The notes beneath the pieces were generated by a model. The model searched no databases. It had not been told where the DNA came from and saw only the letters and a program-made list of their open reading frames with translations. A DNA stretch of 14,121 bases from Gemmatimonadales bacterium (GTDB taxonomy: Bacteria; Gemmatimonadota; Gemmatimonadetes; Gemmatimonadales; GWC2-71-9): positions 1 to 14,121 of the forward strand of contig JBBQFH010000049.1 of NCBI GenBank assembly GCA_038321865.1, read 5' to 3'. Shown one piece after another: positions 1 through 14,121 of this stretch (position 1 is the stretch's first letter; each line of letters starts with the position of its first letter). The position numbers and the translations under genes are program-made.

Positions 1-1
1 G

Positions 2-2197
2 CAGGCCACGGCGGAGAAGGAGATTACCGCGCGGAGCGACGTCTACTCCCTCGGCAGCGTGCTCTATGAGATGCTCACCGGCAATCCGCCCCACACCGGT
101 GCGTCGGCCCAGCAGATCATCATGAAGATCGTGACCGAGGAGGCCGCGCCGGTCACCAAACTGCGCAAGGCCGTGCCACCGAATGTGGCCGCCGCCGTGG
201 CGAAGTCGCTGGAGAAGCTGCCGGCCGACCGGTTCGAGAGCGCCAGGGCATTTGGTGAGGCGCTGGTCAATCCGGGGTTCCGACACGGCACGGTGCTGCT
301 CACCGGCGTCCCGGGACGGCAGGGCGGTTCGCGCTGGCGCGACCCGTTCACGCTCGGTCTCGCGGCGTTCGCCGTGGCCGCCGCCGCCGTCGCGGCCTCG
401 GCGATGCTCCGTTCGACCTCGGCCGGCAATGGTTCGGTTGGACGATATGCCGTTGTTCTCGACAGCACGGCTCCACTCGTGTTCCGGGGCAACCTGGAAC
501 CCGGACGCCTGGCCCTGACGCCCGATGGGCAATCCCTCGTGTATGCCGGCTATCATCCCGTCGCGCAGAACCAGTCACCCGCCAGCGTGCTGTTCGTGCG
601 GCCACTCGGCAGCCTGGCTTCCCGGGTACTGCCGGGCACGGAGCGCGCCGTCCTGCCGGCGGTCTCATGGGACGGGTCGCTCGTGGCCTTCGAGACGGGA
701 GCGCAGGGCGGTATCAGCGCCGTCCCCCTCGGTGGCGGTCCCGCCATCTTCCTCACCGATTCGTCCGTTGCCAGTGGCCCCGCCTGGGGTCCCGACCGTT
801 TCGTGTATTTCCTCACCGAGTCCGGAGCGATCCGCCGGGTCTCGGGGAATGGGGGGCCCGTCGAGTCCGTGAGCCAACTGCCGCCGATTCCCGGCGGCGG
901 CACCTACGAGTGGCTCATGATCCTTCCGGATGGGCGGGGCGCCCTGGTGGGCCAGCGGGGATCAGAGCAGGCCGACGATGCCCGCTTCTCGCTGCGGACG
1001 GTGGATCTCGCGTCCGGTAAACTGGGCATCGCCCTGCCGGGCATCGCGGCCCGCTATGTGGCCGAGGCGAAGGCACTGGTCTACATCACGTTTGACGGGT
1101 CCCTGATGGCGGTGCGGTTCGATCCGGTTGCGCGCAAACTGCGGGGTCGTCCGCAGGCGATGGCCACCGGTGTGACCACGCGGGGAAGGGGGCAGACGGA
1201 CTTCGACCTCGCGGGCGGGAATCTCGCGTATGCCCTCGAGGGCACCAACGGCACCGAATACATCGCGTGGGTCAACCGCGCCGATGGCGGCATGGCCGCG
1301 GTCGACAGCGCCTGGCGCGACATCGAATTCGAGTCGTTTGCACTCTCGCCGGACGGAACGCGCCTGGCCATCTCGATCGACGGCGGCGGATTTGGCGGGA
1401 GTGTCCCCAGCAAGGCGCGGCAAGACATCTGGGTCAAGCAGCTGGATCACGGCCCCATTACGCGCATCACCTTCAACGGGGATGGCAACAGCGATCCTGC
1501 CTGGTCGGCAGACGGCCAGTTCCTGAGCTACGTCTCGATGCGGGGTGGGCGCCGCAGCTTGTGGCGGCGACGGGCCGACGGGGTCGGCGAGGAGCAGCCC
1601 GTCGCCTCGCTTCCCCGCGACATCATCGAGTCCCGGTGGTCGGGCGACGGCGCGTGGCTGGTGGCGAGCGTCGCCGGCGGGAGGTCCTGGGACATCCTGG
1701 CGATGCACCTCGGCGTCGACAGCACCTTGCGGCCACTCCTGGCCGCGGCGTACAACGAGTGGAAACCCGATCTCTCGCCGGACGGCAAGTGGCTGGCCTA
1801 CGTCTCCAATGAGTCGGGCGGCAGCCAGGTCTTCGTCCAGCCATTCCCCGACGTGCAGCAGGGGAAGTGGCAGATCTCCCTCGACGGCGGCACCGACCCT
1901 GTGTGGAGCGCCGACGGCAAGGAGCTCTACTTCCGTTCGGAAGACGGCAGCCAGATCTTTGCCGCCGACATGTCGCGCGGGCCGGGGCTGGCGGAGCGGC
2001 GGAAACTGTTCAAGGCACAGACGGTGAACAGCTTCGAGGTCAACCGGCAGGACCGGATGTTCAGCGTGTCACACGACGGCCAGCGGTTCCTGGTGTCGGC
2101 CAATCGGGACGAGGACCGATCCGGCAACCTCGTAATCGTGCAGAATTTTCTCACCGAGCTCAAGGCGGCGATGGCGGGAGACAGGCGGGCGCCATGA
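2..2197 (+). CDS. Receptor-like Ser/Thr protein kinase, copy 1 (5'-truncated by the window): kinase C-lobe, TM helix, TolB-like/PD40 beta-propeller ectodomain
   Basis: The frame is open from base 2 (QATAEKEITARSDVYSLGSVLYEMLTGNPPHTG...ADRFESA, kinase subdomains IX-XI), so the track start at 59 is internal. TM FTLGLAAFAVAAAAVAASAML lies at 347-409. PD40-like blades include ALTPDG, ALSPDGTRLAI, PAWSADG, PDLSPDGKWLAY and PVWSADGKELYF. Stop TGA 2195-2197. Confidence 0.93.
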   Translation, partial: QATAEKEITARSDVYSLGSVLYEMLTGNPPHTGASAQQIIMKIVTEEAAPVTKLRKAVPPNVAAAVAKSLEKLPADRFESARAFGEALVNPGFRHGTVLLTGVPGRQGGSRWRDPFTLGLAAFAVAAAAVAASAMLRSTSAGNGSVGRYAVVLDSTAPLVFRGNLEPGRLALTPDGQSLVYAGYHPVAQNQSPASVLFVRPLGSLASRVLPGTERAVLPAVSWDGSLVAFETGAQGGISAVPLGGGPAIFLTDSSVASGPAWGPDRFVYFLTESGAIRRVSGNGGPVESVSQLPPIPGGGTYEWLMILPDGRGALVGQRGSEQADDARFSLRTVDLASGKLGIALPGIAARYVAEAKALVYITFDGSLMAVRFDPVARKLRGRPQAMATGVTTRGRGQTDFDLAGGNLAYALEGTNGTEYIAWVNRADGGMAAVDSAWRDIEFESFALSPDGTRLAISIDGGGFGGSVPSKARQDIWVKQLDHGPITRITFNGDGNSDPAWSADGQFLSYVSMRGGRRSLWRRRADGVGEEQPVASLPRDIIESRWSGDGAWLVASVAGGRSWDILAMHLGVDSTLRPLLAAAYNEWKPDLSPDGKWLAYVSNESGGSQVFVQPFPDVQQGKWQISLDGGTDPVWSADGKELYFRSEDGSQIFAADMSRGPGLAERRKLFKAQTVNSFEVNRQDRMFSVSHDGQRFLVSANRDEDRSGNLVIVQNFLTELKAAMAGDRRAP
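104..144 (+). repeat. 41-bp exact direct repeat between copies 1 and 4 (partner 7901-7941)
   Basis: TCGGCCCAGCAGATCATCATGAAGATCGTGACCGAGGAGGC occurs at both positions and encodes SAQQIIMKIVTEEA. Confidence 0.85.
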
Positions 2198-4839
2198 ATA
2201 TCGACGGGCTCACGGCCGCCCTCGCCGACCGCTACCGCATCGAGCGCGAGCTCGGGCAGGGGGGCATGGCGACGGTCTACCTCGCGACCGACCTCCGCCA
2301 CGAGCGACAGGTCGCGATCAAGGTGCTCCGGCCCGATCTCTCCGCCTCGATCGGCAGCGACCGCTTCCTCCAGGAAATCCGGATCGCCGCACGCCTCAGT
2401 CATCCGCACATTCTTCCGCTGCATGACTCGGGCGAAGCGGCCGGTCTTCTCTTTTACGTGATGCCGTACGTCCCCGGCGAATCGCTGCGCCAGCGCATCG
2501 CGCGCGAGGGCGAGCTGCCGGTGCCGGACGCCGTGAGGATTCTCCGTGACGTGACGGATGCGCTCTCGTACGCCCACGAGCACGGCGTCGTCCATCGCGA
2601 CATCAAGCCCGAGAACATCCTCCTCAGCGGGCGGCACGCGCTCGTCGCCGACTTCGGCGTCGCCAAGGCGGTCAGCGAGGCCACCGGCCGGAGCCGGCTG
2701 ACGACCGCCGGCGTGGCGCTTGGGACGCCGTCCTACATGGCGCCCGAGCAGGCGGTCGCGGATCCGCATGTCGATCACCGGGCCGACATCTATGCGGTCG
2801 GCATCGTCGGCTATGAGATGATCGCCGGCGAGCCGCCATTCACCGGCAGCTCGCCACAGCAGATTCTCGCCGCGCAGGTGACCGAGGCGCCGAGGCCGGT
2901 GACGGCCCGGCGCCCCGCCGTCCCAACGTTGGTCGCCGACGCGGTCATGCGCTGCCTCGAGAAGAAACCCGCCGACCGCTGGCAGAGCGCCGGTGACCTG
3001 CTCGCACAGCTCGAGGCGGCACAAACGCCGACCGGCGGCAGCACGCCCACGGACACTCGGCCGATTGCCGCAACGCGCGCGCGCCGCTCCCCACGGCTCG
3101 TCGCCGGTGCGGCCGGCCTGCTGCTGGTGGCAGCCGCCCTCGTCGTCTGGCGCCGGAGCTCGTCGTCGCGCGCGCCAGCCGCGCCGGCGGTGTCCGTGCG
3201 TGATCGGACCCAGCTCACTTTCACCGGCCACGTGCAGTCGCCGGCGATCTCACCCGACGGCAAGCAGCTCGCCTACGTCACCAAGGAATGCGACGAGACC
3301 CGGTGCGCCTACGGGGTCGATGTGCAGGATGTGGGCGGGACCACCACGCGCCGTGTGCTCGCTGGAGCGGCCTCGGCGTACTTCGTGGAGTGGAGTCCCG
3401 ATCGTCGCAACCTGCTGGTGACGGGAACCATGTCCGGCCGGTGGGGCACGTGGCTGGTGTCGCTCGTCGGTGGGGCACCACGATGGGTGGGAACGGGCGG
3501 TGGTGTGTCCGGTGGCGGCGTCGCGTTCTTTGCCGGGGGCGACTCGCTCCTCGTCTCGCCTGGCATGGGCATCGACACGATTCAATATGTGCGGGTCGCC
3601 AGCCTGTCCGGCCTCGTGCGCGACAGCATCGCCGTGCGCAGCGCCGGCCTCCGGTTCGCCGGCGTCGGGGCGATTCCCGGCACCAGCTGGATCGAGGTGA
3701 CGTTCATCCGCACGGGAACGAACCGGGGCGAGCGGCGCATCATCGACCGCAACGGCCGTGAAACCGCTCGGGCGGCAATTCCACTCGGCGCAAGCCGAAA
3801 CAGCGCCGACGCGCTGTGGATTTCCGATGAAGGACCGGCGGATCAGTCGGTCATCACCCGGGTCGCGTTCGATCGTGCCCGCGGGGTGCTCGCGTCGCAG
3901 GTCGACACGGTGTACGTCGGCCGTTTCACCAGCTTCTCGGTGACCGAGGATGGCGCGGCGCTCGTGGTGGACGACGGCACCTATCAGCACAGCGTGTACG
4001 CGCTCAGCATCGCGGATGCGCTCGCCGGTCACTTTCCCGATCAGCGCCGCCTGCTGCAGGGGTCCACCAATGTTCGCGCCCTGATTTCACCCGAAGGCGG
4101 TCGTGTCCTGCTGGGACGCACGATCCCGACCACCAGCGGCCGCCCGGACTACCGGTGGACGCTCATGCCGTTCGACGGCGGGCCGGAATCTCCTCTCGCC
4201 GTGCCATCCAACACGCAATCGGCGTTCTGGGTCGATTCCGCGACCGTCGCCACCATCCGCGCCGAAGCGGGCCGGTCGACATTTGCCCTGGTCAACGCCG
4301 CCACCGGGGCCGCGCGGTTCGAGTTCTCCCCGCCGGACTCCACGGTATGGGACTTCGCGCCGCTGCGCGACGGGGGCTGGGCGTGGCTGACCGGGAACGG
4401 GTCGATCCAGGCCCGGGTCGGCGGGCGAACCGTCGCGCTGCCGAGGCCGGCGTGGTACGAGGTGATCATCGGCATGAGCACGTCGCCAGCCGGCCGGATC
4501 GCGTATCGCGGCTGGAACGCCGGCACCACCGATACGATGGGCGTGAGCGCGGTCTCGCCACCGGACACCGCTTCGGCGTCATGGTATTCGCAGTTCACGG
4601 ACGACGGACGCGTGCTCTCGCTCGATGACGGCACGATCCTGTTTCTGGCCTGGGAAACGGCAGAGAACGTGACGCTGGTCCACCTCTCTGCGCCGGGCAC
4701 GGCCCGGCGCCTCGGCACGATTCCGCGCCCGGTCGTCAGCGTTGGTGTCTCGTCCGATCTCAAGCGCGCCAGCGTCACGACCCGCGACTACTTCGGCGAT
4801 GCGTGGATGATGCGGGTCACCGGGCGGGCAGCGAAGTAG
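2194..4839 (+). CDS. Receptor-like Ser/Thr protein kinase, copy 2 (881 aa), divergent subfamily with a different beta-propeller ectodomain
   Basis: ATG 2194 overlaps the copy 1 stop (ATGA), and MNIDGLTAALADRY matches the paralog N-termini. Motifs: LGQGGMATV, VAIK, QEI, HRDIKPENILL, DFG, GTPSYMAPEQ, DIYAVG. TM LVAGAAGLLLVAAALVVW at 3097-3150. Blades SPAISPDGKQLAY and WSPDRRNLLV. Stop TAG. Confidence 0.93.
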   Translation: MNIDGLTAALADRYRIERELGQGGMATVYLATDLRHERQVAIKVLRPDLSASIGSDRFLQEIRIAARLSHPHILPLHDSGEAAGLLFYVMPYVPGESLRQRIAREGELPVPDAVRILRDVTDALSYAHEHGVVHRDIKPENILLSGRHALVADFGVAKAVSEATGRSRLTTAGVALGTPSYMAPEQAVADPHVDHRADIYAVGIVGYEMIAGEPPFTGSSPQQILAAQVTEAPRPVTARRPAVPTLVADAVMRCLEKKPADRWQSAGDLLAQLEAAQTPTGGSTPTDTRPIAATRARRSPRLVAGAAGLLLVAAALVVWRRSSSSRAPAAPAVSVRDRTQLTFTGHVQSPAISPDGKQLAYVTKECDETRCAYGVDVQDVGGTTTRRVLAGAASAYFVEWSPDRRNLLVTGTMSGRWGTWLVSLVGGAPRWVGTGGGVSGGGVAFFAGGDSLLVSPGMGIDTIQYVRVASLSGLVRDSIAVRSAGLRFAGVGAIPGTSWIEVTFIRTGTNRGERRIIDRNGRETARAAIPLGASRNSADALWISDEGPADQSVITRVAFDRARGVLASQVDTVYVGRFTSFSVTEDGAALVVDDGTYQHSVYALSIADALAGHFPDQRRLLQGSTNVRALISPEGGRVLLGRTIPTTSGRPDYRWTLMPFDGGPESPLAVPSNTQSAFWVDSATVATIRAEAGRSTFALVNAATGAARFEFSPPDSTVWDFAPLRDGGWAWLTGNGSIQARVGGRTVALPRPAWYEVIIGMSTSPAGRIAYRGWNAGTTDTMGVSAVSPPDTASASWYSQFTDDGRVLSLDDGTILFLAWETAENVTLVHLSAPGTARRLGTIPRPVVSVGVSSDLKRASVTTRDYFGDAWMMRVTGRAAK
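2217..2255 (+). repeat. 39-bp direct repeat at the 5' end of kinase genes (exact partner 9915-9953; one mismatch at 12572-12610)
   Basis: CGCCCTCGCCGACCGCTACCGCATCGAGCGCGAGCTCGG, encoding ALADRYRIERELG. Confidence 0.85.
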
Positions 4840-4859
4840 AGCGGGAGGCCAACTTCCGG

Positions 4860-4888
4860 TTGCTCCCCGCCGATCCGCACCGTACCTT
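4860..4888 (+). promoter_or_regulatory. Putative sigma70-type promoter upstream of copy 3
   Basis: TTGCTC (4860-4865), a 17-nt spacer, then TACCTT (4883-4888). It sits in the only real intergenic gap (4840-4914), 26 nt before ATG 4915. Pattern match only. Confidence 0.5.
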
Positions 4889-4914
4889 CTCCCCACCTCT
4901 CCCAATGGCCCCGC

Positions 4915-5742
4915 ATGCCCGCACCCGAACGGCTGACCCAGAGTCTCGCCGAGCGCTATCGCATCGAGCGCGAGCTGGGGCAGGGTGGGATGGCGACGGT
5001 GTACCTCGCCGCCGACCTGAAGCATGACCGCCATGTCGCGCTCAAGGTCCTCAAGCCCGAGCTGGCCGCCGTGCTCGGCGGCGAGCGGTTCGTCGTCGAG
5101 ATCAAGACGACGGCGGCCCTGCAGCATCCGCACATCCTCCCGCTGTTCGACTCCGGCGAAGCCGGCGGCTTCCTCTATTACGTGATGCCGTACATCGAAG
5201 GGGAGACCCTTCGCGACCGGCTCACGCGGGAAACCCAGCTCGCCGTGGACGACGCGGTGCGGATCGCCACGAATGTGGCCGACGCGCTCGACTACGCGCA
5301 CCGCCACGGCGTGATCCACCGCGACATCAAGCCCGAGAACATCCTGCTGCACGACGGCCGTCCGATGGTCGCCGACTTCGGCATCGCCCTGGCACTCAGT
5401 GCGGCGGCCGGCGGGCGCATGACCGAGACCGGCATGAGTCTCGGCACGCCGCACTATATGAGTCCCGAGCAGGCCACCGCCGACAAGGACATCACCAACC
5501 GCGCCGACATCTATTCGCTCGCCGCCGTCCGGGCGTTGCCCGTTATGGCCTCGCCTTTCCGGCCGGCCAGGAGCTGTTCGATGGCGCCTGGCGTACGTTT
5601 GCGCTGGCACCGGACGGCTCGTGGATTGTGTACGACGGTCCCGCGACGGCGGCCGACCACCAGCTCTGGATCAAGCGTCGCGACGCCTATCAGGCGACGC
5701 CGCTGTCGGGCACGGCGCACCGTGGCGCCAGCGCGCCGGTGA
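4915..5742 (+). CDS. N-terminal fragment of copy 3: Ser/Thr kinase subdomains I to the start of IX, with an out-of-frame tail
   Basis: MPAPERLTQSLAERYRIERELGQGGMATVY, VALK, HRDIKPENILL, DFG, GTPHYMSPEQ, DIYSL. Homology to the paralogs ends near 5530. Confidence 0.6.
   Translation: MPAPERLTQSLAERYRIERELGQGGMATVYLAADLKHDRHVALKVLKPELAAVLGGERFVVEIKTTAALQHPHILPLFDSGEAGGFLYYVMPYIEGETLRDRLTRETQLAVDDAVRIATNVADALDYAHRHGVIHRDIKPENILLHDGRPMVADFGIALALSAAAGGRMTETGMSLGTPHYMSPEQATADKDITNRADIYSLAAVRALPVMASPFRPARSCSMAPGVRLRWHRTARGLCTTVPRRRPTTSSGSSVATPIRRRRCRARRTVAPARR
5302..5360 (+). repeat. 59-bp exact direct repeat between kinase copies 3 and 4 (partner 7631-7689)
   Basis: CGCCACGGCGTGATCCACCGCGACATCAAGCCCGAGAACATCCTGCTGCACGACGGCCG occurs at both positions and encodes the catalytic loop region. 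Confidence 0.85.
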
Positions 5743-7235
5743 TTTCGCCGGACGGGAAGTGGATCGCCTTCAGCAGCAGCCGCCAGCTCCTGAAGATCGG
5801 CCGCGACGGCGGCTCGCCGATCAAGCTGGCGGATTCGCTTGGCGCCGGCAGCGCCGGCGCCGCGTGGCTCGATGACGGCACCATCGTCTATCGCGACGTG
5901 CACGACCGGTTGATGCGAGTCCCCGACACGGGAGGCGAAGCGACCGCGGCGTGGGCGCCGGGCACAAGTGGGATGCGCGCGTTCGCGCCTACGCCGTTGC
6001 CGGGTGCGCGGGGCGTTCTGGTGGTGCTCTGCAAGGATGCCGGATGCAGCCGCAGACCCATCGCGATGCTGGACTTCAAGTCCGGCCAGATGCACGAGCT
6101 GGTGCCGGACGCAGCGGAGGCCTGGTACGCACCGACCGGGCACCTGGTCTTCGTCCGCCGGGATGGTGGAGTGTTCGGCGCGCCGTTCGACGTCAAGCGG
6201 GAGCGGCTCACCGGGCCATCCGTCCCGCTGCTGGACGGTGTGCAGGTACGGGCGGTTCCTGCATTCGCCGTCTCGGCATCTGGATCGATGCTCATGATCG
6301 CCGGCCCGGCTGATGCCGCGACCGGAACTCTGGTTGAAGCGGTCTGGGTCACGCGCGACGGCAAGGTGACGCCGGTCGACACGGCATGGCAGTTTCGGAC
6401 CGGAGGCAACGCCGGACGCGCCTTGTCACCCGACGGACGGCGTCTCGCGCTCACGATCGCAGCAGAGGGTGGCAACGACATCTGGGTGAAAGACCTGGAC
6501 CATGGGCCGCTGTCGCGCCTGAGCAGCGATCCCGGACCCGAAATCCGCCCTCGCTGGACTCCGGACGGCCGCTCGGTACTCTATATATCGTCGTCCCAGA
6601 TGCTGCTCCGCCGCCGGGCGGACGGCACGCTTCCGCCGGACACGCTGCTCCGGCTGCCGGAACCGATCTTCGAGGCGCAATGGTCGCGCGACGGTGCGTG
6701 GATTGTGGTGCGAGTCGGCGGCCAGGATGGGACCCGGGACATCTGGGCCCGGCAGGTCGGGAAAGACAGCACGGCACGGCGGGTGCTCGCCTCGCCCGCC
6801 GACGAGAACGCGGTGGCGCTCTCGCCGGACAGCCGATGGATCGCCTACCAGTCGAACGAAACGGGCACGCCGGAGGTGTTCGTGCGGCCGTTTCCCGATG
6901 TCTCAGCAGGGAAGTGGACCGTGTCGCTCGGTGGCGGATCGGAGCCGATCTGGTCGCACAGCGGAAAGGAGCTGTTCTACATCGACGACCATCAAAACAT
7001 GGTCGCGGCCCGGGTGCGCAGCACCGGTTCGACTGCGTTCGAGGTGACCGAGCGGAAGGTGCTGTTCTCCACCGCTCCGTTCATGCTGACGGTGAACTAC
7101 AGCTCACACGATGTGACACCGGACGATCAGCGCTTTCTGATGGTTCGCCGCGCCGGCGTGACGGATTCGGTCCGCACGGCAATCGTGCTGACGGAGAACT
7201 GGTTCGAGGAGTTGCGGGCGCGGATGGGGAAGTAG
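5520..7235 (+). CDS. C-terminal fragment of copy 3: TolB-like/PD40 beta-propeller ectodomain with no native start (ORF track starts it at GTG 5628)
   Basis: Blades ISPDGKWIAF, ALSPDGRRLAL, PRWTPDGRSV, ALSPDSRWIAY and PIWSHSGKELFY. The C-terminal IVLTENWFEELR resembles the paralog ends. Homology extends upstream of 5628 to the junction. Confidence 0.55.
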   Translation, partial: RRRPGVARYGLAFPAGQELFDGAWRTFALAPDGSWIVYDGPATAADHQLWIKRRDAYQATPLSGTAHRGASAPVISPDGKWIAFSSSRQLLKIGRDGGSPIKLADSLGAGSAGAAWLDDGTIVYRDVHDRLMRVPDTGGEATAAWAPGTSGMRAFAPTPLPGARGVLVVLCKDAGCSRRPIAMLDFKSGQMHELVPDAAEAWYAPTGHLVFVRRDGGVFGAPFDVKRERLTGPSVPLLDGVQVRAVPAFAVSASGSMLMIAGPADAATGTLVEAVWVTRDGKVTPVDTAWQFRTGGNAGRALSPDGRRLALTIAAEGGNDIWVKDLDHGPLSRLSSDPGPEIRPRWTPDGRSVLYISSSQMLLRRRADGTLPPDTLLRLPEPIFEAQWSRDGAWIVVRVGGQDGTRDIWARQVGKDSTARRVLASPADENAVALSPDSRWIAYQSNETGTPEVFVRPFPDVSAGKWTVSLGGGSEPIWSHSGKELFYIDDHQNMVAARVRSTGSTAFEVTERKVLFSTAPFMLTVNYSSHDVTPDDQRFLMVRRAGVTDSVRTAIVLTENWFEELRARMGK

Positions 7236-7237
7236 GC

Positions 7238-9889
7238 ATGGACGGATCAATGGGCGCACGCCTGAGCTCGGCCGTTTCCGACCGGTACCTGATCGAGCGC
7301 GAGCTCGGCCGGGGCGGCATGGCCACGGTGTATCTCGCCCAGGATCGCAGGCACGACCGGCTGGTGGCGCTCAAGGTCCTGAAGCCCGAGCTCGCCGCCG
7401 TGCTCGGTGCCGAGCGCTTCGTACAGGAGATCAAGACCACCGCGGCGCTGCAGCACCCGCACATCCTTCCGCTCTTCGATTCTGGCACCGCCGACGGCTT
7501 CCTCTACTACGTGATGCCGTACATCCAGGGCGAAACGCTTCGCGGCAAGCTCGATCGCGAAACCCAGCTCGGCATCGAGGAGTCCGTGCGGATCACGACG
7601 AACGTCGCCGACGCGCTGGATTACGCGCATCGCCACGGCGTGATCCACCGCGACATCAAGCCCGAGAACATCCTGCTGCACGACGGCCGGCCGATGGTGG
7701 CCGACTTCGGCATCGCCCTCGCGCTCAGTGCCGCCGCCGGCGGGCGGATGACCGAGACCGGCATGTCGCTGGGCACGCCGCACTACATGAGCCCCGAGCA
7801 GGCCACCGCCGACAAGGAGATCTCCGGTCGCTCAGACATCTACTCGCTCGGCTCGGTCCTGTACGAGATGCTGACGGGCAATCCGCCGCACACCGGATCC
7901 TCGGCCCAGCAGATCATCATGAAGATCGTGACCGAGGAGGCGGCTCCAGTCACGAAGCTCCGGAGAGCGGTGCCGCCGAATGTAGCGGCGGCCGTGGCGA
8001 GGGCGCTGGAAAAGCTGCCCGCCGACCGGTTCGACAGTGCGCAGAGCTTCGCGCGCGCGTTGAACGACCGCGCATATCGTCCGGCTCGCGCCACCGCTCG
8101 CTGGTCGGTTCGTACGATCGTGCTCACCGGCGCGGTCACCCTTGCGTGCGCACTGGCTGTTGTCGCGGTGAGTGCGGCATGGGTGAACCGTCGAGCCGCG
8201 CCGGACCCGTCGCCGGGACGGGTCCAGTTCGTCGTCACGGCGAAAGGCGCGGCCGAGCCAGTGTACACCCTGACCTGGCCCGCAGTCGTTTCGCCCGATG
8301 GCCGCGCGATCGTCTACGCCGGCGCCGCCGGCAATGGCACCTATCAGTACTATTTGCGCGACGCCGGCCAGCTCGACTCGCATGCCATCCCCGGCACGAT
8401 TGAGGCGTCGCTGCCGACCTTCTCGCCGGACGGACGGTGGGTCGCGTTCCAGGCGCAGGACGGCCGGGTGAAAAAGGCCCGCCTCGATGGCAGCGCGCCC
8501 ATCGCTTTGGCCGAATACCACCAGGGCAACGGCATGGCGTGGTCGCCGCGCGGCGTCATCGTACTCGGCGCCGGCAGCAAGTGGCTGGGTCTCTCACGCA
8601 TGTCCGAGAACGGCGGCGCCCTCGCACCACTCACGACGCCGGACAGCGCCCACGCCGGCTGGCACATCTGGCCGGTCGTGCTCGCCGACGGCAGGACGAT
8701 CGTGTTCTCGGTGTGGAACTCGATGGATCCGACCCAGGGCTCCGAGCTCGCGTTCACATCGCTCGACGACCCTGTCGTCCACCTGACCGGCCTGCATGCG
8801 TTGCGTGCGCTGGGCGCGAGCGGTGAATACCTAGTCTACATCGCCGCTGACGGCGTCGTCATGGCGACGCGGTTCAATTTCCGGAATCGTCACGCCGTCG
8901 GAAGCTCGGTCGCGCTCATCGATTCGATTCCGGTGTGTCCGGTCTGCAACGGGGATGCGGCCGTCAGCCTGTCGGCGGGCGGAGCCCTCGCGTACATGCG
9001 CGGCGGCCCTCGCCGGCGCCTCGTGTGGGTGAATCGAGACGGCACCGAGACGAACGCCGGCCCCGACGCCGCGCTGATCCTGACGCCGCGAATCTCGCCG
9101 GACGGGAGCAGGATCGCAGCGGAGATCGACGCCGCGGGGCGGAAGGACATCTGGGTCTACCAGATCGCCACGCGCACGATGACGAGGATCACGACCGACG
9201 GCGACAATTCCGCCCCCGCATGGGGGGCGGACGGTCGCAGCATTCTCTTCCTCTCGGCGCGTGCGGGGCGTACGGCATTCGTGCGGCAGCCGCTCGATGC
9301 GAGCGCCGATGCAGCGCCGATCCTGAGCGGCATCGAAGGGCTGGAATGGGGCGCCGCGCTGTCCCCGGACGAGCGGCACGTCATCCGTCAATCCTCGACC
9401 GGTGCCACGATCAGCCTGGTGACGGCCGCCGTCGGTGGAGATTCGCAGCGGACCTTCGTTTCGGGCAACTATAACGCATGGGGCGCGCGATTCTCGCCCA
9501 GCGGCAGGTCGGTCGCGTATGCGTCGGACGAGTCCGGACGGACGGAGGTGTACATCAGGTCGTTCCCCGGTCCGGGAGTTCGCGTCCAGGTATCCGCGGG
9601 TGGAGGGTCGGAGCCGGTATGGTCCCGCGACGGACTCCGCCTGTATTACGCGGCGGGCAACCAGATGACGAGCGCCACGCTCGCGCCCGAGCCGAACGTA
9701 TCGGTCGTCACGCGCGACTCGCTCTTCTCTGCGCCATTCTTCGGCACGTACCTGACGCCGGCGACGTACGACGTCGGACCCGATGGCCGACTGCTCGTAC
9801 TCAAGCCTGATGAAGCGCACCTGCAGCTCGTGGTCGCGCTGAACTGGACCTCGGACCTGGGCGCTCGGGTCGCCGCGCCCACACCATGA
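7238..9889 (+). CDS. Receptor-like Ser/Thr protein kinase, copy 4 (883 aa): kinase, TM, TolB-like/PD40 ectodomain
   Basis: ATG 7238 lies 2 nt after the upstream TAG and follows purine-rich GGGGAAG; ATG 7250 is an alternative start. Motifs LGRGGMATV, VALK, QEI, HRDIKPEN, DFG, SPEQ, DIYSLG. TM 8117-8185. Blades VSPDGRAIVY, FSPDGRWVAF, ISPDGSRIA, FSPSGRSVAY, PVWSRDG. Confidence 0.92.
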   Translation: MDGSMGARLSSAVSDRYLIERELGRGGMATVYLAQDRRHDRLVALKVLKPELAAVLGAERFVQEIKTTAALQHPHILPLFDSGTADGFLYYVMPYIQGETLRGKLDRETQLGIEESVRITTNVADALDYAHRHGVIHRDIKPENILLHDGRPMVADFGIALALSAAAGGRMTETGMSLGTPHYMSPEQATADKEISGRSDIYSLGSVLYEMLTGNPPHTGSSAQQIIMKIVTEEAAPVTKLRRAVPPNVAAAVARALEKLPADRFDSAQSFARALNDRAYRPARATARWSVRTIVLTGAVTLACALAVVAVSAAWVNRRAAPDPSPGRVQFVVTAKGAAEPVYTLTWPAVVSPDGRAIVYAGAAGNGTYQYYLRDAGQLDSHAIPGTIEASLPTFSPDGRWVAFQAQDGRVKKARLDGSAPIALAEYHQGNGMAWSPRGVIVLGAGSKWLGLSRMSENGGALAPLTTPDSAHAGWHIWPVVLADGRTIVFSVWNSMDPTQGSELAFTSLDDPVVHLTGLHALRALGASGEYLVYIAADGVVMATRFNFRNRHAVGSSVALIDSIPVCPVCNGDAAVSLSAGGALAYMRGGPRRRLVWVNRDGTETNAGPDAALILTPRISPDGSRIAAEIDAAGRKDIWVYQIATRTMTRITTDGDNSAPAWGADGRSILFLSARAGRTAFVRQPLDASADAAPILSGIEGLEWGAALSPDERHVIRQSSTGATISLVTAAVGGDSQRTFVSGNYNAWGARFSPSGRSVAYASDESGRTEVYIRSFPGPGVRVQVSAGGGSEPVWSRDGLRLYYAAGNQMTSATLAPEPNVSVVTRDSLFSAPFFGTYLTPATYDVGPDGRLLVLKPDEAHLQLVVALNWTSDLGARVAAPTP

Positions 9890-12546
9890 CGGTGCCGAAT
9901 GTCGCGCTGACCGTCGCCCTCGCCGACCGCTACCGCATCGAGCGCGAGCTCGGCGCCGGCGGGATGGCGACGGTCTACCTGGCCGAGGATCTGAAGCACG
10001 GCCGGAGAGTCGCCATCAAGGTGCTTCGGCCCGAGCTGGCCGCGGTCATCGGCGCCGAGCGATTCGTGCGGGAAATCCGGACGATCGCGGCGCTGCAGCA
10101 TCCGCACATTCTGGGGCTCATCGACAGCGGCGAGGTGGAGGGGACCGCCTGGTACGCCATGCCGTTCGTGGAAGGGGAGAGTCTCCGCGACCGGCTCACG
10201 CGGGAGAAGCAGCTGCCCATCGCCGACGCGGTCCGCCTCGCCGGCGAGGTGGCCAGTGCGCTCGACTACGCGCATCGGCACGGCGTGATCCACCGCGACA
10301 TCAAGCCGGAGAACATCCTGCTGCACGACGGCTCGGCGCTGGTGGCCGATTTCGGGATCGCGCTCGCGGTCTCCAGCGCGAGCGGCACCCGCATGACCGA
10401 GACCGGGATGAGTCTCGGCACCCCGCACTACATGAGCCCCGAGCAGGCGATGGGCGAGCGCGAGATCACCGCGCGCTCCGACGTGTATGCTCTGGGCTGC
10501 GTGACCTACGAGATGCTGGTCGGCGAGCCGCCCTTCACCGGCCCCACGGCCCAGGCCATCGTCGCCCGGATGATGACGGAGGCGCCGCGTTCGCTTGCGG
10601 CCCAGCGGAGCACCGTCCCGCCCGCGGTCGAGGACGCGGTGATGACGGCGCTCGCCAAGCTGCCGGCCGACCGGTTCGCCTCGGCCGCGGAGTTCGCGGC
10701 GGCGCTCAGGAGTGATACGGGGCCGCGGCGGACGACGGCGATGCCCGCGCCCGCTCGTCGGAGTGCCCGCCCGGCCCGGATCGCCGCCGCCGCCGCCATC
10801 CTCACCCTCGTCGGCCTCGCGGCGTGGGGCTGGCTCCGCCCAGCGCAATCGGTGCTACCGGCGACCCGGCGCGTAGACGTGGCGCTCCCCGATTCGGCGC
10901 CGATCGAGTTCGTGGGTGAGGCACCGATCGGCGTCGGCCAGACCGCGCTCGCGCTCTCGCCCGACGGCCGGACGCTGGTATACGTCGGTGGCGGTGCCGG
11001 CCGGCGCACCCGGCTGTTCGTTCGCCCCCTCGACCGCTTCGAGGCCACGCCTCTTGCGGGCACCGACGGCGCCTACGGGCCGTTCTTTTCTCCCGACGGC
11101 GACTGGATCGGCTTCTTCGCCGAGAATCAGCTGCGGAAAGTGTCAGTCAGCGGCGGGGCCGTGTCGGTCCTCGCGGATGCGCCGGGCTCGACCGGCGGCG
11201 CCTGGTCGGAGGACGGAAGGATCGAGTTCCTCACCGCAGCCGGTGCCGACTGGAACGAGGTCGCGGCGGCGGGCGGGAAGTCGCGCGTCGTCTCGCACCG
11301 GCATTCGGGAGCCCTCAAGCCCCTCGGCTTTCTGCCCGGTGGACACTGGCTCCTCTGCACCACGTACGTGGACGAAGGGTTCTACATCCTGGTGGCACTT
11401 GCCACCGACGGACGGGACGCGCGCGTCCTGGTGCGGAACGGCGCCGCCCGGCCATGGCATGAGGGCTCGATCGTACCGGACGACGCCCTCCTCGGTGCGT
11501 CGCCGCAGTACGATCGCCGCGGCTCGCTGCTCTACACCCGCGCCGATGGCTCGCTCATGGCCGTCCGCTTCGACGCGAGCCGCCTCGAGGTGCAGGGTGA
11601 GCCCGTCACCGTCGCCCTTGGCCTTCGCCGCGAGTCGTGGACCGGTCACGCGCAGGTCGCGCTCGCAGGCGATGGGACGCTGGCTTATGTCACGGGAGCC
11701 AACTCCGACGTCGGCCCGCTCGCCTGGCTCGACCGGAGCGGCCGGCTCGACACGCTGCCGTTCCCAGTCGTGGGCTCGCTCGGCACCGACGTCTCGTCCG
11801 ACGGCAGAAGCCTCGCGGTCGCCATTCCGGCGATCGGCGGGAGCCTCGAACTCTGGGTGTATGATTTTGCGAGCGCCCAGCGGCAGCGGGTACTCGGCGG
11901 GCTCTGCGCGTCGGAGGTGCGCTGGTCGGCCGATGGCCGGACGGTCCTGGCCTGCCTCACAGGTGTCGGGCTCGTCCGCCTCGATCCGGCGCGGCCCGGT
12001 CGCATCGACACGCTCGCGCCGAATCGGGTCAATCCATCGTCGCCATCCCGTGACGGCCGCCTGCTCCTCCTGGGATCAGTCGATACCGATTCGGAGTTCG
12101 TGCTCGCGCTGGACGGGCGGAGCCGGCCGACTTCGGTGCCCTACACCACGACCGGCCCGTATCAGCCGAGCTTTTCTCCGGATGGTCATTGGGTGGCGTC
12201 GCTGGGACAACAGAACGGGGTATTCGTCGAGCCGTATCCGGTCACCGGGGAGGTCTACCGTGTCTCCGGTCAGCTCGAGGGCGATGTGCCCTCATGGTCG
12301 CCCGACGGACGCGAAATCATCTTTCCGTCGGCCTCGCAGCTCTACGCCGTGGCGGTGCAGCCCGGCCCGACGTTCCGCTTCGGCGCGCCGAGGCTCATCG
12401 CGGCGCAGCGGCTCGCCAATATCTCGGGGAGACCGTATGCGATGGCCCCCGACGGACGGCGGTTCCTGATTCGCGTGCCCACCGCGGAGCATGCGGCGCG
12501 GTCCATCCATCTGGTGTTGAACGGCGGCCCGGCGGCGGGACGGTGA
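9886..12546 (+). CDS. Receptor-like Ser/Thr protein kinase, copy 5 (886 aa): kinase, TM, TolB-like/PD40 ectodomain
   Basis: ATGA overlap with the copy 4 stop. Motifs LGAGGMATV, VAIK, REI, HRDIKPEN, DFG, SPEQ, DVYALG. TM IAAAAAILTLVGLAAWGWL at 10780-10836. Blades LSPDGRTLVY, FSPDGDWIGF, FSPDGHWVA, WSPDGREIIF. Confidence 0.94.
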   Translation: MTVPNVALTVALADRYRIERELGAGGMATVYLAEDLKHGRRVAIKVLRPELAAVIGAERFVREIRTIAALQHPHILGLIDSGEVEGTAWYAMPFVEGESLRDRLTREKQLPIADAVRLAGEVASALDYAHRHGVIHRDIKPENILLHDGSALVADFGIALAVSSASGTRMTETGMSLGTPHYMSPEQAMGEREITARSDVYALGCVTYEMLVGEPPFTGPTAQAIVARMMTEAPRSLAAQRSTVPPAVEDAVMTALAKLPADRFASAAEFAAALRSDTGPRRTTAMPAPARRSARPARIAAAAAILTLVGLAAWGWLRPAQSVLPATRRVDVALPDSAPIEFVGEAPIGVGQTALALSPDGRTLVYVGGGAGRRTRLFVRPLDRFEATPLAGTDGAYGPFFSPDGDWIGFFAENQLRKVSVSGGAVSVLADAPGSTGGAWSEDGRIEFLTAAGADWNEVAAAGGKSRVVSHRHSGALKPLGFLPGGHWLLCTTYVDEGFYILVALATDGRDARVLVRNGAARPWHEGSIVPDDALLGASPQYDRRGSLLYTRADGSLMAVRFDASRLEVQGEPVTVALGLRRESWTGHAQVALAGDGTLAYVTGANSDVGPLAWLDRSGRLDTLPFPVVGSLGTDVSSDGRSLAVAIPAIGGSLELWVYDFASAQRQRVLGGLCASEVRWSADGRTVLACLTGVGLVRLDPARPGRIDTLAPNRVNPSSPSRDGRLLLLGSVDTDSEFVLALDGRSRPTSVPYTTTGPYQPSFSPDGHWVASLGQQNGVFVEPYPVTGEVYRVSGQLEGDVPSWSPDGREIIFPSASQLYAVAVQPGPTFRFGAPRLIAAQRLANISGRPYAMAPDGRRFLIRVPTAEHAARSIHLVLNGGPAAGR

Positions 12547-14121
12547 GCCAGATCCCCGGCCGTCTCGCCGCCGCCCTCGCCGACCGCTACCGTATCGAGC
12601 GCGAGCTCGGCCAGGGCGGCATGGCGACCGTGTATCTCGCCGAAGATCTCAAGCACAAGCGCCGCGTGGCGGTGAAAGTGCTCAAGCCCGAGCTCGCGGC
12701 GGTCCTCGGCGCCGAGCGGTTCGTGCAGGAAATCACGACGACGGCGGCGTTGCAGCACCCGCACATCCTGCCGCTGTTCGATTCCGGCGCTGCCGACGGC
12801 TTTCTCTACTACGTCATGCCGTACATCGAGGGTGAAACCCTGCGCAGCAAGCTGGACCGGGAGAAGCAGCTCGGGATCGAGGACGCCGTGCGGATCACCC
12901 GCGACGTCGCTGACGCGCTCGATTACGCGCACCGACGCGGCGTCATCCACCGGGACATCAAGCCGGAAAACATCCTGCTGCACGACGGCCGGCCCATGGT
13001 GGCCGACTTCGGCATTGCGCTGGCACTCAGTGCGGCGGCAGGCGGCCGCATGACCGAGACCGGCCTTTCCCTGGGCACGCCGCACTACATGAGCCCCGAG
13101 CAGGCGACCGCCGAGAAGGACATCACCGCGCGTTCGGACGTGTACTCGCTGGGCAGCGTGCTCTACGAGATGCTGACCGGCAATCCGCCGCATGTCGGTG
13201 CCACGGCGCAGCAAATCATCATGAAGATCGTCGCCGAAGATGCGCGGCCGGTCACGCAGCTGCGCCGCTCCGTCCCGCGAAACGTCGCGGCCGCCGTCCG
13301 CAAGGCGATCGAAAAGCTGCCGGGCGACCGCTTCGAGAGTGCTGCCGCCTTTGGCGCGGCGCTCGGGGACGTTCACTACGTGGATCCGGCGGCAAAGGCG
13401 GCCGCCGTGCCGCTCAGACAGAATCGCCCGGCCCTCCTGATGGCGGGCGTCGCCGCGCTGGCGGTGCTTGCGACCGGCTGGAGCTACGTCCGCCGGCCCC
13501 GCTCCGCGTCACCCCGCCCGCTCGCGCGGCTGGTCGTCGCCCTCCCTGATTCCCAGCCCCTGACCGCGTCGGCAGGCCGCCGAATCGCGTTCACGCCCGA
13601 CGGCCGCGCCTTCGTGTACGTCGCCGACGGACCGGCCGGGACGCGGCTCTTCCTGCGGCCGCTCGACGCAATCGAGTCCACCCCGATTCCCGGCAGTGAG
13701 GGCGCGACGAACCCCGCGTTCTCACCAGATGGAGAGACGATCGCGTTCGTCGCGTTCGGGCCGTTCGCGATCCGGACGATCCCGCGGGCGGGCGGTGCCG
13801 CCACGACCATCGCGAGCGGCACGAACCTGGTGTCCGGCGGTGGGGTGGACTGGGGAGCTGACGGCTGGATCTATTTCGATGGCGGCACTGGTATCACGCG
13901 CATCCGTCCCGACGGATCCGGGCGCGAGGTCGTGGCACCGATGAAGCCTGCGGAAGCAGCCGCCTGGCCGACGGTGCTCCCGAACGGCCGTGCCGTACTG
14001 CTCCGGGTGCGGCGCACCGGTGAAACCGAGCAGCAGTACACGATCGAGGCCGCTGATCTGCGAACGCGGGTCCGGAAGACCCTCGTCCGTGCGCTCGCCG
14101 CGCGCTACGACCCTGCCGGCT
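12543..14121 (+). CDS. Receptor-like Ser/Thr protein kinase, copy 6 (3'-truncated by the window; absent from the ORF track)
   Basis: GTG 12543 overlaps the copy 5 stop (GTGA). Hand translation: MSQIPGRLAAALADRYRIERELGQGGMATVYLAEDLKHKRRVAVKVLKPEL...HRDIKPENILLHDGRPMVADFG...GTPHYMSPEQ...DVYSLGSVLYEMLTGNPPH. TM ALLMAGVAALAVLATGWSYV at 13431-13490, then IAFTPDGRAFVY and PAFSPDGETIAF. No stop seen before the window end. Confidence 0.93.
   Translation, partial: MSQIPGRLAAALADRYRIERELGQGGMATVYLAEDLKHKRRVAVKVLKPELAAVLGAERFVQEITTTAALQHPHILPLFDSGAADGFLYYVMPYIEGETLRSKLDREKQLGIEDAVRITRDVADALDYAHRRGVIHRDIKPENILLHDGRPMVADFGIALALSAAAGGRMTETGLSLGTPHYMSPEQATAEKDITARSDVYSLGSVLYEMLTGNPPHVGATAQQIIMKIVAEDARPVTQLRRSVPRNVAAAVRKAIEKLPGDRFESAAAFGAALGDVHYVDPAAKAAAVPLRQNRPALLMAGVAALAVLATGWSYVRRPRSASPRPLARLVVALPDSQPLTASAGRRIAFTPDGRAFVYVADGPAGTRLFLRPLDAIESTPIPGSEGATNPAFSPDGETIAFVAFGPFAIRTIPRAGGAATTIASGTNLVSGGGVDWGADGWIYFDGGTGITRIRPDGSGREVVAPMKPAEAAAWPTVLPNGRAVLLRVRRTGETEQQYTIEAADLRTRVRKTLVRALAARYDPAG

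Follow-up and report, generated by a model that had tools for sequence, protein, structure and literature searches.

The 14,121-nucleotide (nt) window analysed here is an entire contig (JBBQFH010000049.1, C49 below) of a Gemmatimonadales bacterium (GCA_038321865.1; source genome G000, 3.40 Mb in 139 contigs), and it carries six Hanks-type kinase-transmembrane (TM)-propeller genes on the (+) strand, head to tail and without an intervening gene. We think it probable that the window is most of a seven-gene row, six genes intact and one deleted, in which a conserved kinase is combined with distinct 12-blade double-propeller sensors that are predicted to be periplasmic and likely feed a few shared phosphothreonine outputs. 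The kinases of the row are conserved and its ectodomains diverse, close relatives differ in their array content, and ectodomain types have been re-paired with different kinase clades.

Layout of the row and its two protein halves

The original prediction, made from the window's letters and open reading frames, described six consecutive same-strand units with no other gene between them, and this was borne out by the open reading frames and by a repeat scan of the window, in which kinase repeats are spaced 2724, 2329, 2645 and 2657 nt apart. Pfam matched Pkinase and PD40 in six of six units (E ≤ 0.001, some matches being partial or weak and below the curated cut-off). The array had been called open at both edges, and it is so at the window edges because the contig stops there, inside units; overlaps with two further contigs close it at seven. 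The first 141 nt of the window are identical to the 3′ end of contig C11, and its end overlaps the start of contig C37 by 29 nt, in frame and with one mismatch. Joining C11, C49 and C37 completes units 1 and 6 and adds unit 7, giving an array of 18,481 nt flanked by DoxX-like and Uma2-like genes, both on the opposite strand. From unit 1 to unit 7 the intergenic gaps are −4, 75, 2, −4, −4 and 66 nt, with a 4-nt stop/start overlap at three junctions (U1/U2, U4/U5 and U5/U6). Hairpin, promoter and terminator signals in the U2/U3 gap were none above chance. An integron-like cassette array, which would have repeated recombination sites between genes, was rejected, as each of the three spacers tested occurs once in the genome and none folds better than shuffled sequence. 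For a diversity-generating retroelement, we found no near-identical long repeat pair within the window; the genome was not searched for reverse transcriptase.

By their motifs and one-TM topology, the units class as Hanks-type receptor Ser/Thr kinases. To place them we used a family set of 182 full-length kinase-propeller proteins from the source genome and fetched loci, a non-random sample gathered around one query. The Hanks motifs (Gly loop, Lys, HRDxKPxN, DFG and GTxxYxxPE) are present in the six intact units and in 181/181 family members, and the two threonines of an activation-loop TxT are kept in 178 of the 181. Positions aligned to residues of the PknB N-lobe interface, which we take to be dimer contacts, are kept in 173 and 181 of 181 members. 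The closest solved kinase domain is that of PknB (PDB search, E 2e-53; PDB 3f69, 1mru and others). Hydropathy predicts a TM segment after the kinase in six units and in 181/182 family members, and net charge is higher on the kinase side of this segment in 125 members and lower in 34. Two known identities were rejected for this half: a PASTA kinase (PknB/Stk1), since there is no PASTA match and NF033483 scores 299–313 against a cut-off of 450, and an antiphage kinase (PD-T4-6, MADS6 or BREX PglW), since matches are confined to the kinase fold, NCBIfam scores fall below cut-offs and no system genes are evident nearby.

The ectodomain is about 570 amino acids (aa) long and has twelve blade motifs spaced 40–53 aa apart. 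Its precomputed domains are PD40, PF26549 (named Tricorn_N) and PF26550, with no NHL match, and its best solved sequence match, covering part of it, is TolB. It is likely built, judging from these motifs, as two six-bladed propellers without a peptidase domain. We rejected three familiar identities. TolB itself does not fit, since TIGR02800 scores 96 against a cut-off of 343 and the units have no TolB_N; for a Tricorn, S9 or DPP IV peptidase, propeller families alone were matched and no catalytic peptidase domain; and a PknD-type sensor is at odds with twelve blade motifs and no NHL match, the PknD sensor being absent among the best 60 PDB matches listed.

Close cysteine pairs occur in 48/181 ectodomains, compared with a mean of 3.6 and a maximum of 10 in shuffles and 1/181 in kinases, and even cysteine counts outnumber odd ones 68 to 20 (Poisson expectation 36 to 78). 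Together with the charge bias across the TM segment, this pairing and evenness indicate an oxidising, periplasmic ectodomain. Among the 150 best ectodomain representatives, 113 have at least 90 residues ahead of the ectodomain, and 98 of these 113 match a kinase profile there; in nine non-kinase proteins with this ectodomain that we scanned, Trans_reg_C (four) or BTAD (three) stands ahead of the TM segment. That one domain serves several output modules argues that it is a sensor, and we predict that it is likely a periplasmic ligand sensor. The receptor topology of the original prediction is thus upheld by the TM segment, the cysteine pairing and the sharing of the ectodomain with other outputs. 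Conservation within types exceeds conservation across the family most strongly at loop offsets −8 and +8, which, with blade geometry taken from TolB-type propellers, we assume to be top-face loops. As a separate observation, a small N-terminal multi-TM module without a Pfam match substitutes for the kinase before TPR/propeller ectodomains at six loci (L063:13583-15361; P0275, P0378).

Divergence, turnover and re-pairing of the halves

Kinase identity among the seven units is 58.8–90.8%, and ectodomain identity 27.1–36.5%. The kinases of units 1, 3, 4, 6 and 7 form one group at 80.5–90.8% identity; to other units, the unit 5 kinase is 62–75% and the unit 2 kinase 59–64% identical. The description of the kinases as nearly equivalent therefore holds for five units and fails for units 5 and 2. 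At four-fold sites the units differ by p 0.39–0.52 in kinases and 0.50–0.71 in ectodomains, and with synonymous sites so far diverged and no long identical runs, recent local tandem duplication was rejected.

Across 19 close pairs, the whole-domain ratio of nonsynonymous to synonymous substitution rates (dN/dS) is 0.14–0.38 for ectodomains and 0.03–0.15 for kinases, and 252 of 560 positions of the unit-4 type are at least 90% conserved. Both halves are under purifying selection, and the units come from an old, reshuffled pool and not from arms-race diversification. Positive selection on the recognition domain, the mark of an immune-type diversifying locus, was not seen at the level of whole-domain dN/dS in these pairs.

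The reshuffling is visible in the pairing of the halves. Clustered at 50% identity, the 182 ectodomains give 113 types, 78 of them singletons (Chao1 265), and 10 of the 35 multi-member types sit on more than one kinase clade. In quick trees of 49 selected proteins, made with no mixture model and with types picked after seeing the clustering, 10/10 multi-member types are clades on the ectodomain tree (support 99–100) and 0/10 on the kinase tree. Type monophyly was rejected on the kinase tree for both types tested (approximately unbiased (AU) test, p 9e-66 and 7.5e-5), as was the main kinase clade on the ectodomain tree (AU p 5e-73). In genome G031, the 30 longest high-identity tracts (91–99%, up to 461 nt) all lie inside the kinase and look conversion-like. 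Some close pairs have a dS two to four times as high in the kinase as in the ectodomain.

Array content also differs among close relatives. In five same-genus genomes, all metagenome-assembled, 66–91% complete and of a kind in which repeats assemble badly, the closest ectodomains to units 1–7 are 61, 56, 47, 35, 37, 42 and 37% identical (unit 6 by its C37 part). As a benchmark, 34 non-kinase orthologues shared with genome G005 have a median identity of 86% (biased upward, as they were chosen at ≥70%), and the ectodomains of two orthologous receptor pairs are 79–83% identical, a third candidate pair reaching 66%. At the level of sequence identity, no array unit has an orthologue-level ectodomain in the five genomes, and we found no one-to-one conserved cluster of the kind that the original prediction had set against a changing repertoire. 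Sideways from the arrays, a kinase-propeller gene of G005 (C14 46330-48987, L121) lies amid genes syntenic with C25 of the source genome, where no kinase was found, which points to single receptor gain or loss outside arrays.

Ectodomain types are nevertheless shared widely. Of 73 loci related to unit 4, 72 are titled Gemmatimonadota (mostly Gemmatimonadales) and one Thermoanaerobaculia, and the unit-4 ectodomain type recurs at 58–64% in 11 database proteins. A further two genera have the unit-5 type at 65% identity, its rarity being a lower bound because the search of 151 genomes scored nine candidates per genome. Recurrence across genera, together with patchy same-genus matches, implies that the types are old, stable and patchily spread. 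A search of 25 genomes, with up to 55 candidates scored in each, gave 0 to 27 ectodomain-family copies per genome; matches at E 1e-60 are confined to the order, and neighbours of the ectodomain in the Atlas are mostly Acidobacteriota. Arrays are common among relatives: G031 has a run of 11 consecutive kinase genes on a single 5.45-Mb chromosome, one of them an internal-deletion remnant, and in G055 a 105-kb section of a 591-kb contig contains 26 kinase domains. The G031 remnant (C1 4882307-4882924, L108) is a 205-aa in-frame fusion of the kinase N-lobe to the last propeller blades, within the array; another kinase remnant lies at G005:C12 75881-76315.

The deleted unit and the soundness of the assembly

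Five units of the window are kinase-TM-propeller genes, as had been claimed of all six. Unit 3 has lost 355–379 nt, and with them the last part of the C-lobe and the TM segment, and the propeller is shifted out of frame, so that kinase and propeller lie in separate frames. The Hanks catalytic motifs are retained without the C-lobe end, and the deletion accounts for the short 2.3-kb period (Table 1). Five more receptor kinase genes of the source genome are broken by stops, frameshifts or deletions, unchecked against reads (C6 105382-108096, C15 33039-36004, C35 11888-15025, C50 2210-4892 and C78 2758-4741). Separately, the kinase genes of C15/C50 and of C33/C74 share 90–97% identical tracts that extend past the kinase, and are either recent whole-gene duplicates or strain variants in the bin.

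Table 1. Coordinates of the seven units of the array (window positions unless a contig is named)
Feature	Position	Strand	Remarks
Unit 1, 3′ part: kinase C-lobe, TM ~353-409, 12-blade propeller ectodomain	1..2197	+	5′ part on G000:C11 80953-81650; 917 aa total
Unit 2, 881 aa: most divergent kinase, divergent propeller, TM ~3094-3150	2194..4839	+	start overlaps unit 1 stop by 4 nt
Unit 3 kinase fragment, without TM, predicted likely inactive	4915..5742	+	kinase positions 3-206 matched to ~5523, then out of frame
Unit 3 propeller remnant: complete 12-blade domain, without TM, in a different frame from the kinase	5521..7235	+	
Unit 4, 883 aa (879 if start 7250): TM ~8114-8170; ectodomain with type-conserved CxxC	7238..9889	+	closest ectodomain relative found 64% identical
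Unit 5, 886 aa: second kinase clade; TM ~10780-10836	9886..12546	+	4-nt overlap with unit 4 stop; ectodomain type at 65% in two other genera
Unit 6, 5′ part: kinase, TM ~13434-13490, first blades	12543..14121	+	runs on to G000:C37 1129; 892 aa; 4-nt overlap with unit 5
Unit 7	C37 1196-3832		last gene of array

We also considered whether assembly had joined dispersed paralogues, or sequences of several strains, into a chimeric array. The contig breaks within units at both ends, and the U1/U2 and U3/U4 junctions are unbridged among the eight pieces listed from an independent assembly (run X1, possibly of the source sample). However, an X1 unitig at 5427-6990 crosses the unit 3 junction with zero differences, and X1 unitigs of even depth (8–10) bridge U2/U3, the unit 3 deletion, U4/U5 and U5/U6, again without differences. 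The 4-nt overlaps stay in frame, and the long runs of G031 and G055 lie on a single chromosome and a large contig. We therefore regard a chimera, of which the X1 unitigs gave no sign, as having a negligible chance of being the explanation.

Candidate outputs, rival readings and known systems

The source genome has 85 kinase-domain loci, of which 32 continue into this propeller and 62 are clustered (≤6 kb from another kinase); by our own gene calling (~3,170 genes) kinase domains make up ~2.7% of the gene number. Scans of 53 post-kinase regions gave PD40 in 29, TPR in 21 and no match in three. The array is thus one of several clusters, such runs are common in the order, and the notion of a special receptor locus did not survive. 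We found no joins among the remaining contigs rich in kinases (C15, C26, C33, C50 and some small contigs), and a single super-island in this genome was therefore not demonstrated.

Set against these kinases are few candidate outputs, as had been expected: four confirmed FHA genes (a triple FHA with a TM segment, an FHA-trypsin, one in a secretion-like locus and an FHA-GAF-cyclase), four PP2C phosphatases and one strong PF07638 sigma factor of the extracytoplasmic function (ECF) type, which adjoins its own kinase. Kinase-linked ECF groups have been described (PMC7826278). The triple FHA, with its TM segment C-terminal, and the FHA-trypsin-like peptidase genes (C3 126256-128298 and C25 13737-16005) each adjoin a PP2C gene. 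The FHA-GAF-adenylate/guanylate cyclase (C9 84432-86060; L133:4435-6060) is a candidate reader from kinase activity to cyclic nucleotide. The remaining FHA protein (C42 2696-8979, L132) accompanies a ClpB/ClpV-like AAA+ ATPase and a weak T6SS_VasE (TssK-like) match (E 6.5e-4), a possible type VI-like secretion locus.

Across 113 loci, PP2C genes and beta-lactamase-fold genes recur most often as neighbours, at 12 loci each, partly overlapping. Categories were assigned by hand to the 77 of 80 near genes scanned (three receptor fragments dropped) and to 80 of 130 background ones; genes of mobile, toxin-antitoxin or nuclease type are enriched beside kinases, at 8/77 compared with 0/80 (p 0.003). 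Two further loci lie in other genomes. At G019:C1 1680977-1692731 (L159), a cluster of amidohydrolase, peptidase S51 and cyanophycin synthetase genes stands between two kinase-propeller genes that face each other, and at G021:C4 496963-502276 (L157) genes for an amino-acid permease and a POT peptide transporter are interspersed among receptor kinase genes of the same strand.

We propose that ligand binding at the top-face loops of the propellers would cluster the receptors, and that the clustered kinases would activate by PknB-like dimerisation and phosphorylation of the activation-loop threonines. Near-identical kinases would share substrates, and the phosphorylated outputs may be read by the few FHA proteins, the FHA-GAF-cyclase among them, and reset by the PP2C phosphatases. 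The conserved kinase DNA could serve as the recombination substrate for gain, loss, deletion and re-pairing of units, drawn presumably from an old, large pool of ectodomain types under purifying selection and unevenly spread among lineages. The ligands are perhaps peptides or protein segments arriving in the periplasm, a tentative guess from the propeller class that we would not yet call probable.

Several observations count against this proposal. Recent gene conversion among the array's own kinases was not found, the longest identical run being 46 nt, and kinase identity is 85% within the genome compared with 83–84% between genomes; purifying selection alone can therefore explain kinase similarity here. 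Part of the repertoire is stable: of 44 G005 receptors queried, 43 were adequately covered, and among these 12 find an orthologue-level counterpart (≥75%) in the source genome, 12 more matching at 50–75% and 19 below 50%. The incompleteness of the same-genus genomes also weakens the case for turnover. The loop-offset peaks are in part ordinary loop variability, and units 2 and 5, on different kinase clades, may have other substrates. Genes beside kinases show no enrichment of peptidases or of transporters for peptides or amino acids (5/77 compared with 12/80, p 0.12), which leaves the peptide guess without support from context.

We weighed three other explanations. An unlikely one is immune-like surveillance, with propellers that detect molecules of phages, predators or competitors, kinases that set off defence or dormancy, and turnover driven by conflict. 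The flexible DNA around the kinases, at least six broken receptor genes in the genome and kinase domains that score against PADLOC PD-T4-6 models would suit it, but the PADLOC and NCBIfam matches reflect the generic kinase fold alone and the ectodomains match no PADLOC model. Ectodomain types persist at 60–65% identity across genera, the low ectodomain dN/dS holds in 19/19 close pairs, and no antiphage system is evident in the Pfam names of the 77 neighbours (no PADLOC scan of neighbours was made). Phage or predator cues, suggested originally as ligands, found no tie here. Largely neutral birth and death, with a recombination-prone family accumulating in flexible islands and most copies doing little, would explain the uneven copy numbers and the recurring pseudogenes and internal-deletion remnants; the strong purifying selection on both halves, the catalytic motifs intact in every full-length member and the conserved positions of the unit-4 type make it very improbable.

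A dedicated pathway for each receptor, with clustering and translational coupling reflecting an ordinary operon of old paralogues, we hold to be distinctly unlikely. The far-diverged synonymous sites, three kinase clades in one row, the 4-nt overlaps and the kinase elsewhere with its own ECF sigma gene are all compatible with it. Nevertheless, neither the array nor its flanks contain a gene for a cognate substrate or regulator, the candidate partners for 85 kinase loci number only about nine, and the same ectodomain type occurs on different kinase clades.

The shared-output reading could be carried further. Gemmatimonadales (and Acidobacteriota) might run a counterpart of eukaryotic receptor-kinase repertoires, in which hundreds of circulating ligand-specific double-propeller types plug by recombination into a near-constant kinase acting as homology arm, and a dimer interface common to the paralogues lets them activate one another, with the result that any one of dozens of cues would throw a common phosphothreonine switch; we offer this as speculation and doubt it more than we believe it. 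If the shared-output reading holds, the arrays show how a bacterium can add, lose and re-pair sensory inputs without rewiring its outputs, and the family would offer hundreds of periplasmic binding modules, a natural library built on one standard signalling stalk. The interest lies in this evolutionary modularity more than in this locus, and in a phylum, Gemmatimonadota, that is abundant and poorly understood. The idea is testable because the cultured Gemmatirosa kalamazoonensis carries family members (five matching places on plasmid 2, one a confirmed kinase and propeller).

The original prediction knew of no functional description of such an array, and the literature searched, which reached little of the subscription literature and no supplements, likewise yielded no published account of tandem, half-swapping kinase-propeller arrays and no characterised member of this family. 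In a comparative genomics study of Gemmatimonadota (PMC11596202), the word 'kinase' is absent from the main text.

Membrane-tethered regulators of the CadC/ToxR type with PD40 ectodomains share the ectodomain behind a TM segment, but their output is a DNA-binding domain and not a kinase. The PknD sensor consists of six NHL blades. Like the units, PknD of Mycobacterium tuberculosis has an N-terminal Hanks kinase, one TM segment and an extracytoplasmic β-propeller, and its activation by dimerisation is a working model (PMC1847690). Unlike them, it is a single gene with one small symmetric propeller (PMC1847690), whereas the units are predicted to have 12 blades of the PD40/tricorn type in two propellers, and their family shows dozens of paralogues in a genome, gene arrays and halves that have been swapped. 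The PASTA kinases PknB, Stk1 and StkP align with the units in two activation-loop threonines and N-lobe interface residues, but are single-copy cell-division kinases, which the PASTA-less units are not; the dimerisation route of PknB and PknD has been called debated (PMC13434768).

The array was also predicted to be organised like plant receptor-like kinase clusters. Those clusters are tandem, with conserved kinases, diverse ectodomains, presence/absence variation and pseudogenes, and the plant ectodomain is N-terminal. The likeness stands for tandem order, kinase conservation, ectodomain diversity, presence/absence variation and pseudogenes; it does not extend to topology, which is reversed, to the sensor folds, which are unrelated, or to selection, which is purifying on the ectodomains of the array with no sign of diversification.

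In Candidatus Solibacter usitatus Ellin6076, Ser/Thr kinase paralogues are likewise many and old, <50% identical over their full length and without positive selection; that account, in the part available, gives no domain architecture, arrays or shuffling and does not mention TolB (PMC3174227). Planctomycetota ('Ca. Uabimicrobium amorphum') likewise have a lineage-specific expansion of kinase-TM-WD40/TPR proteins with predicted periplasmic repeats, for which duplication or recombination is invoked and myxobacteria are also cited (PMC11032199). There, 'tandem' refers to domains inside a protein and not to gene arrays, and the available text leaves Gemmatimonadota unmentioned and holds no test of half-swapping or of turnover among close relatives. 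Expansions of the kinase-TM-WD40/TPR kind are thus already published for Planctomycetota, and the present array, larger than first described and partly decayed, is typical of an unstudied, lineage-wide receptor family.

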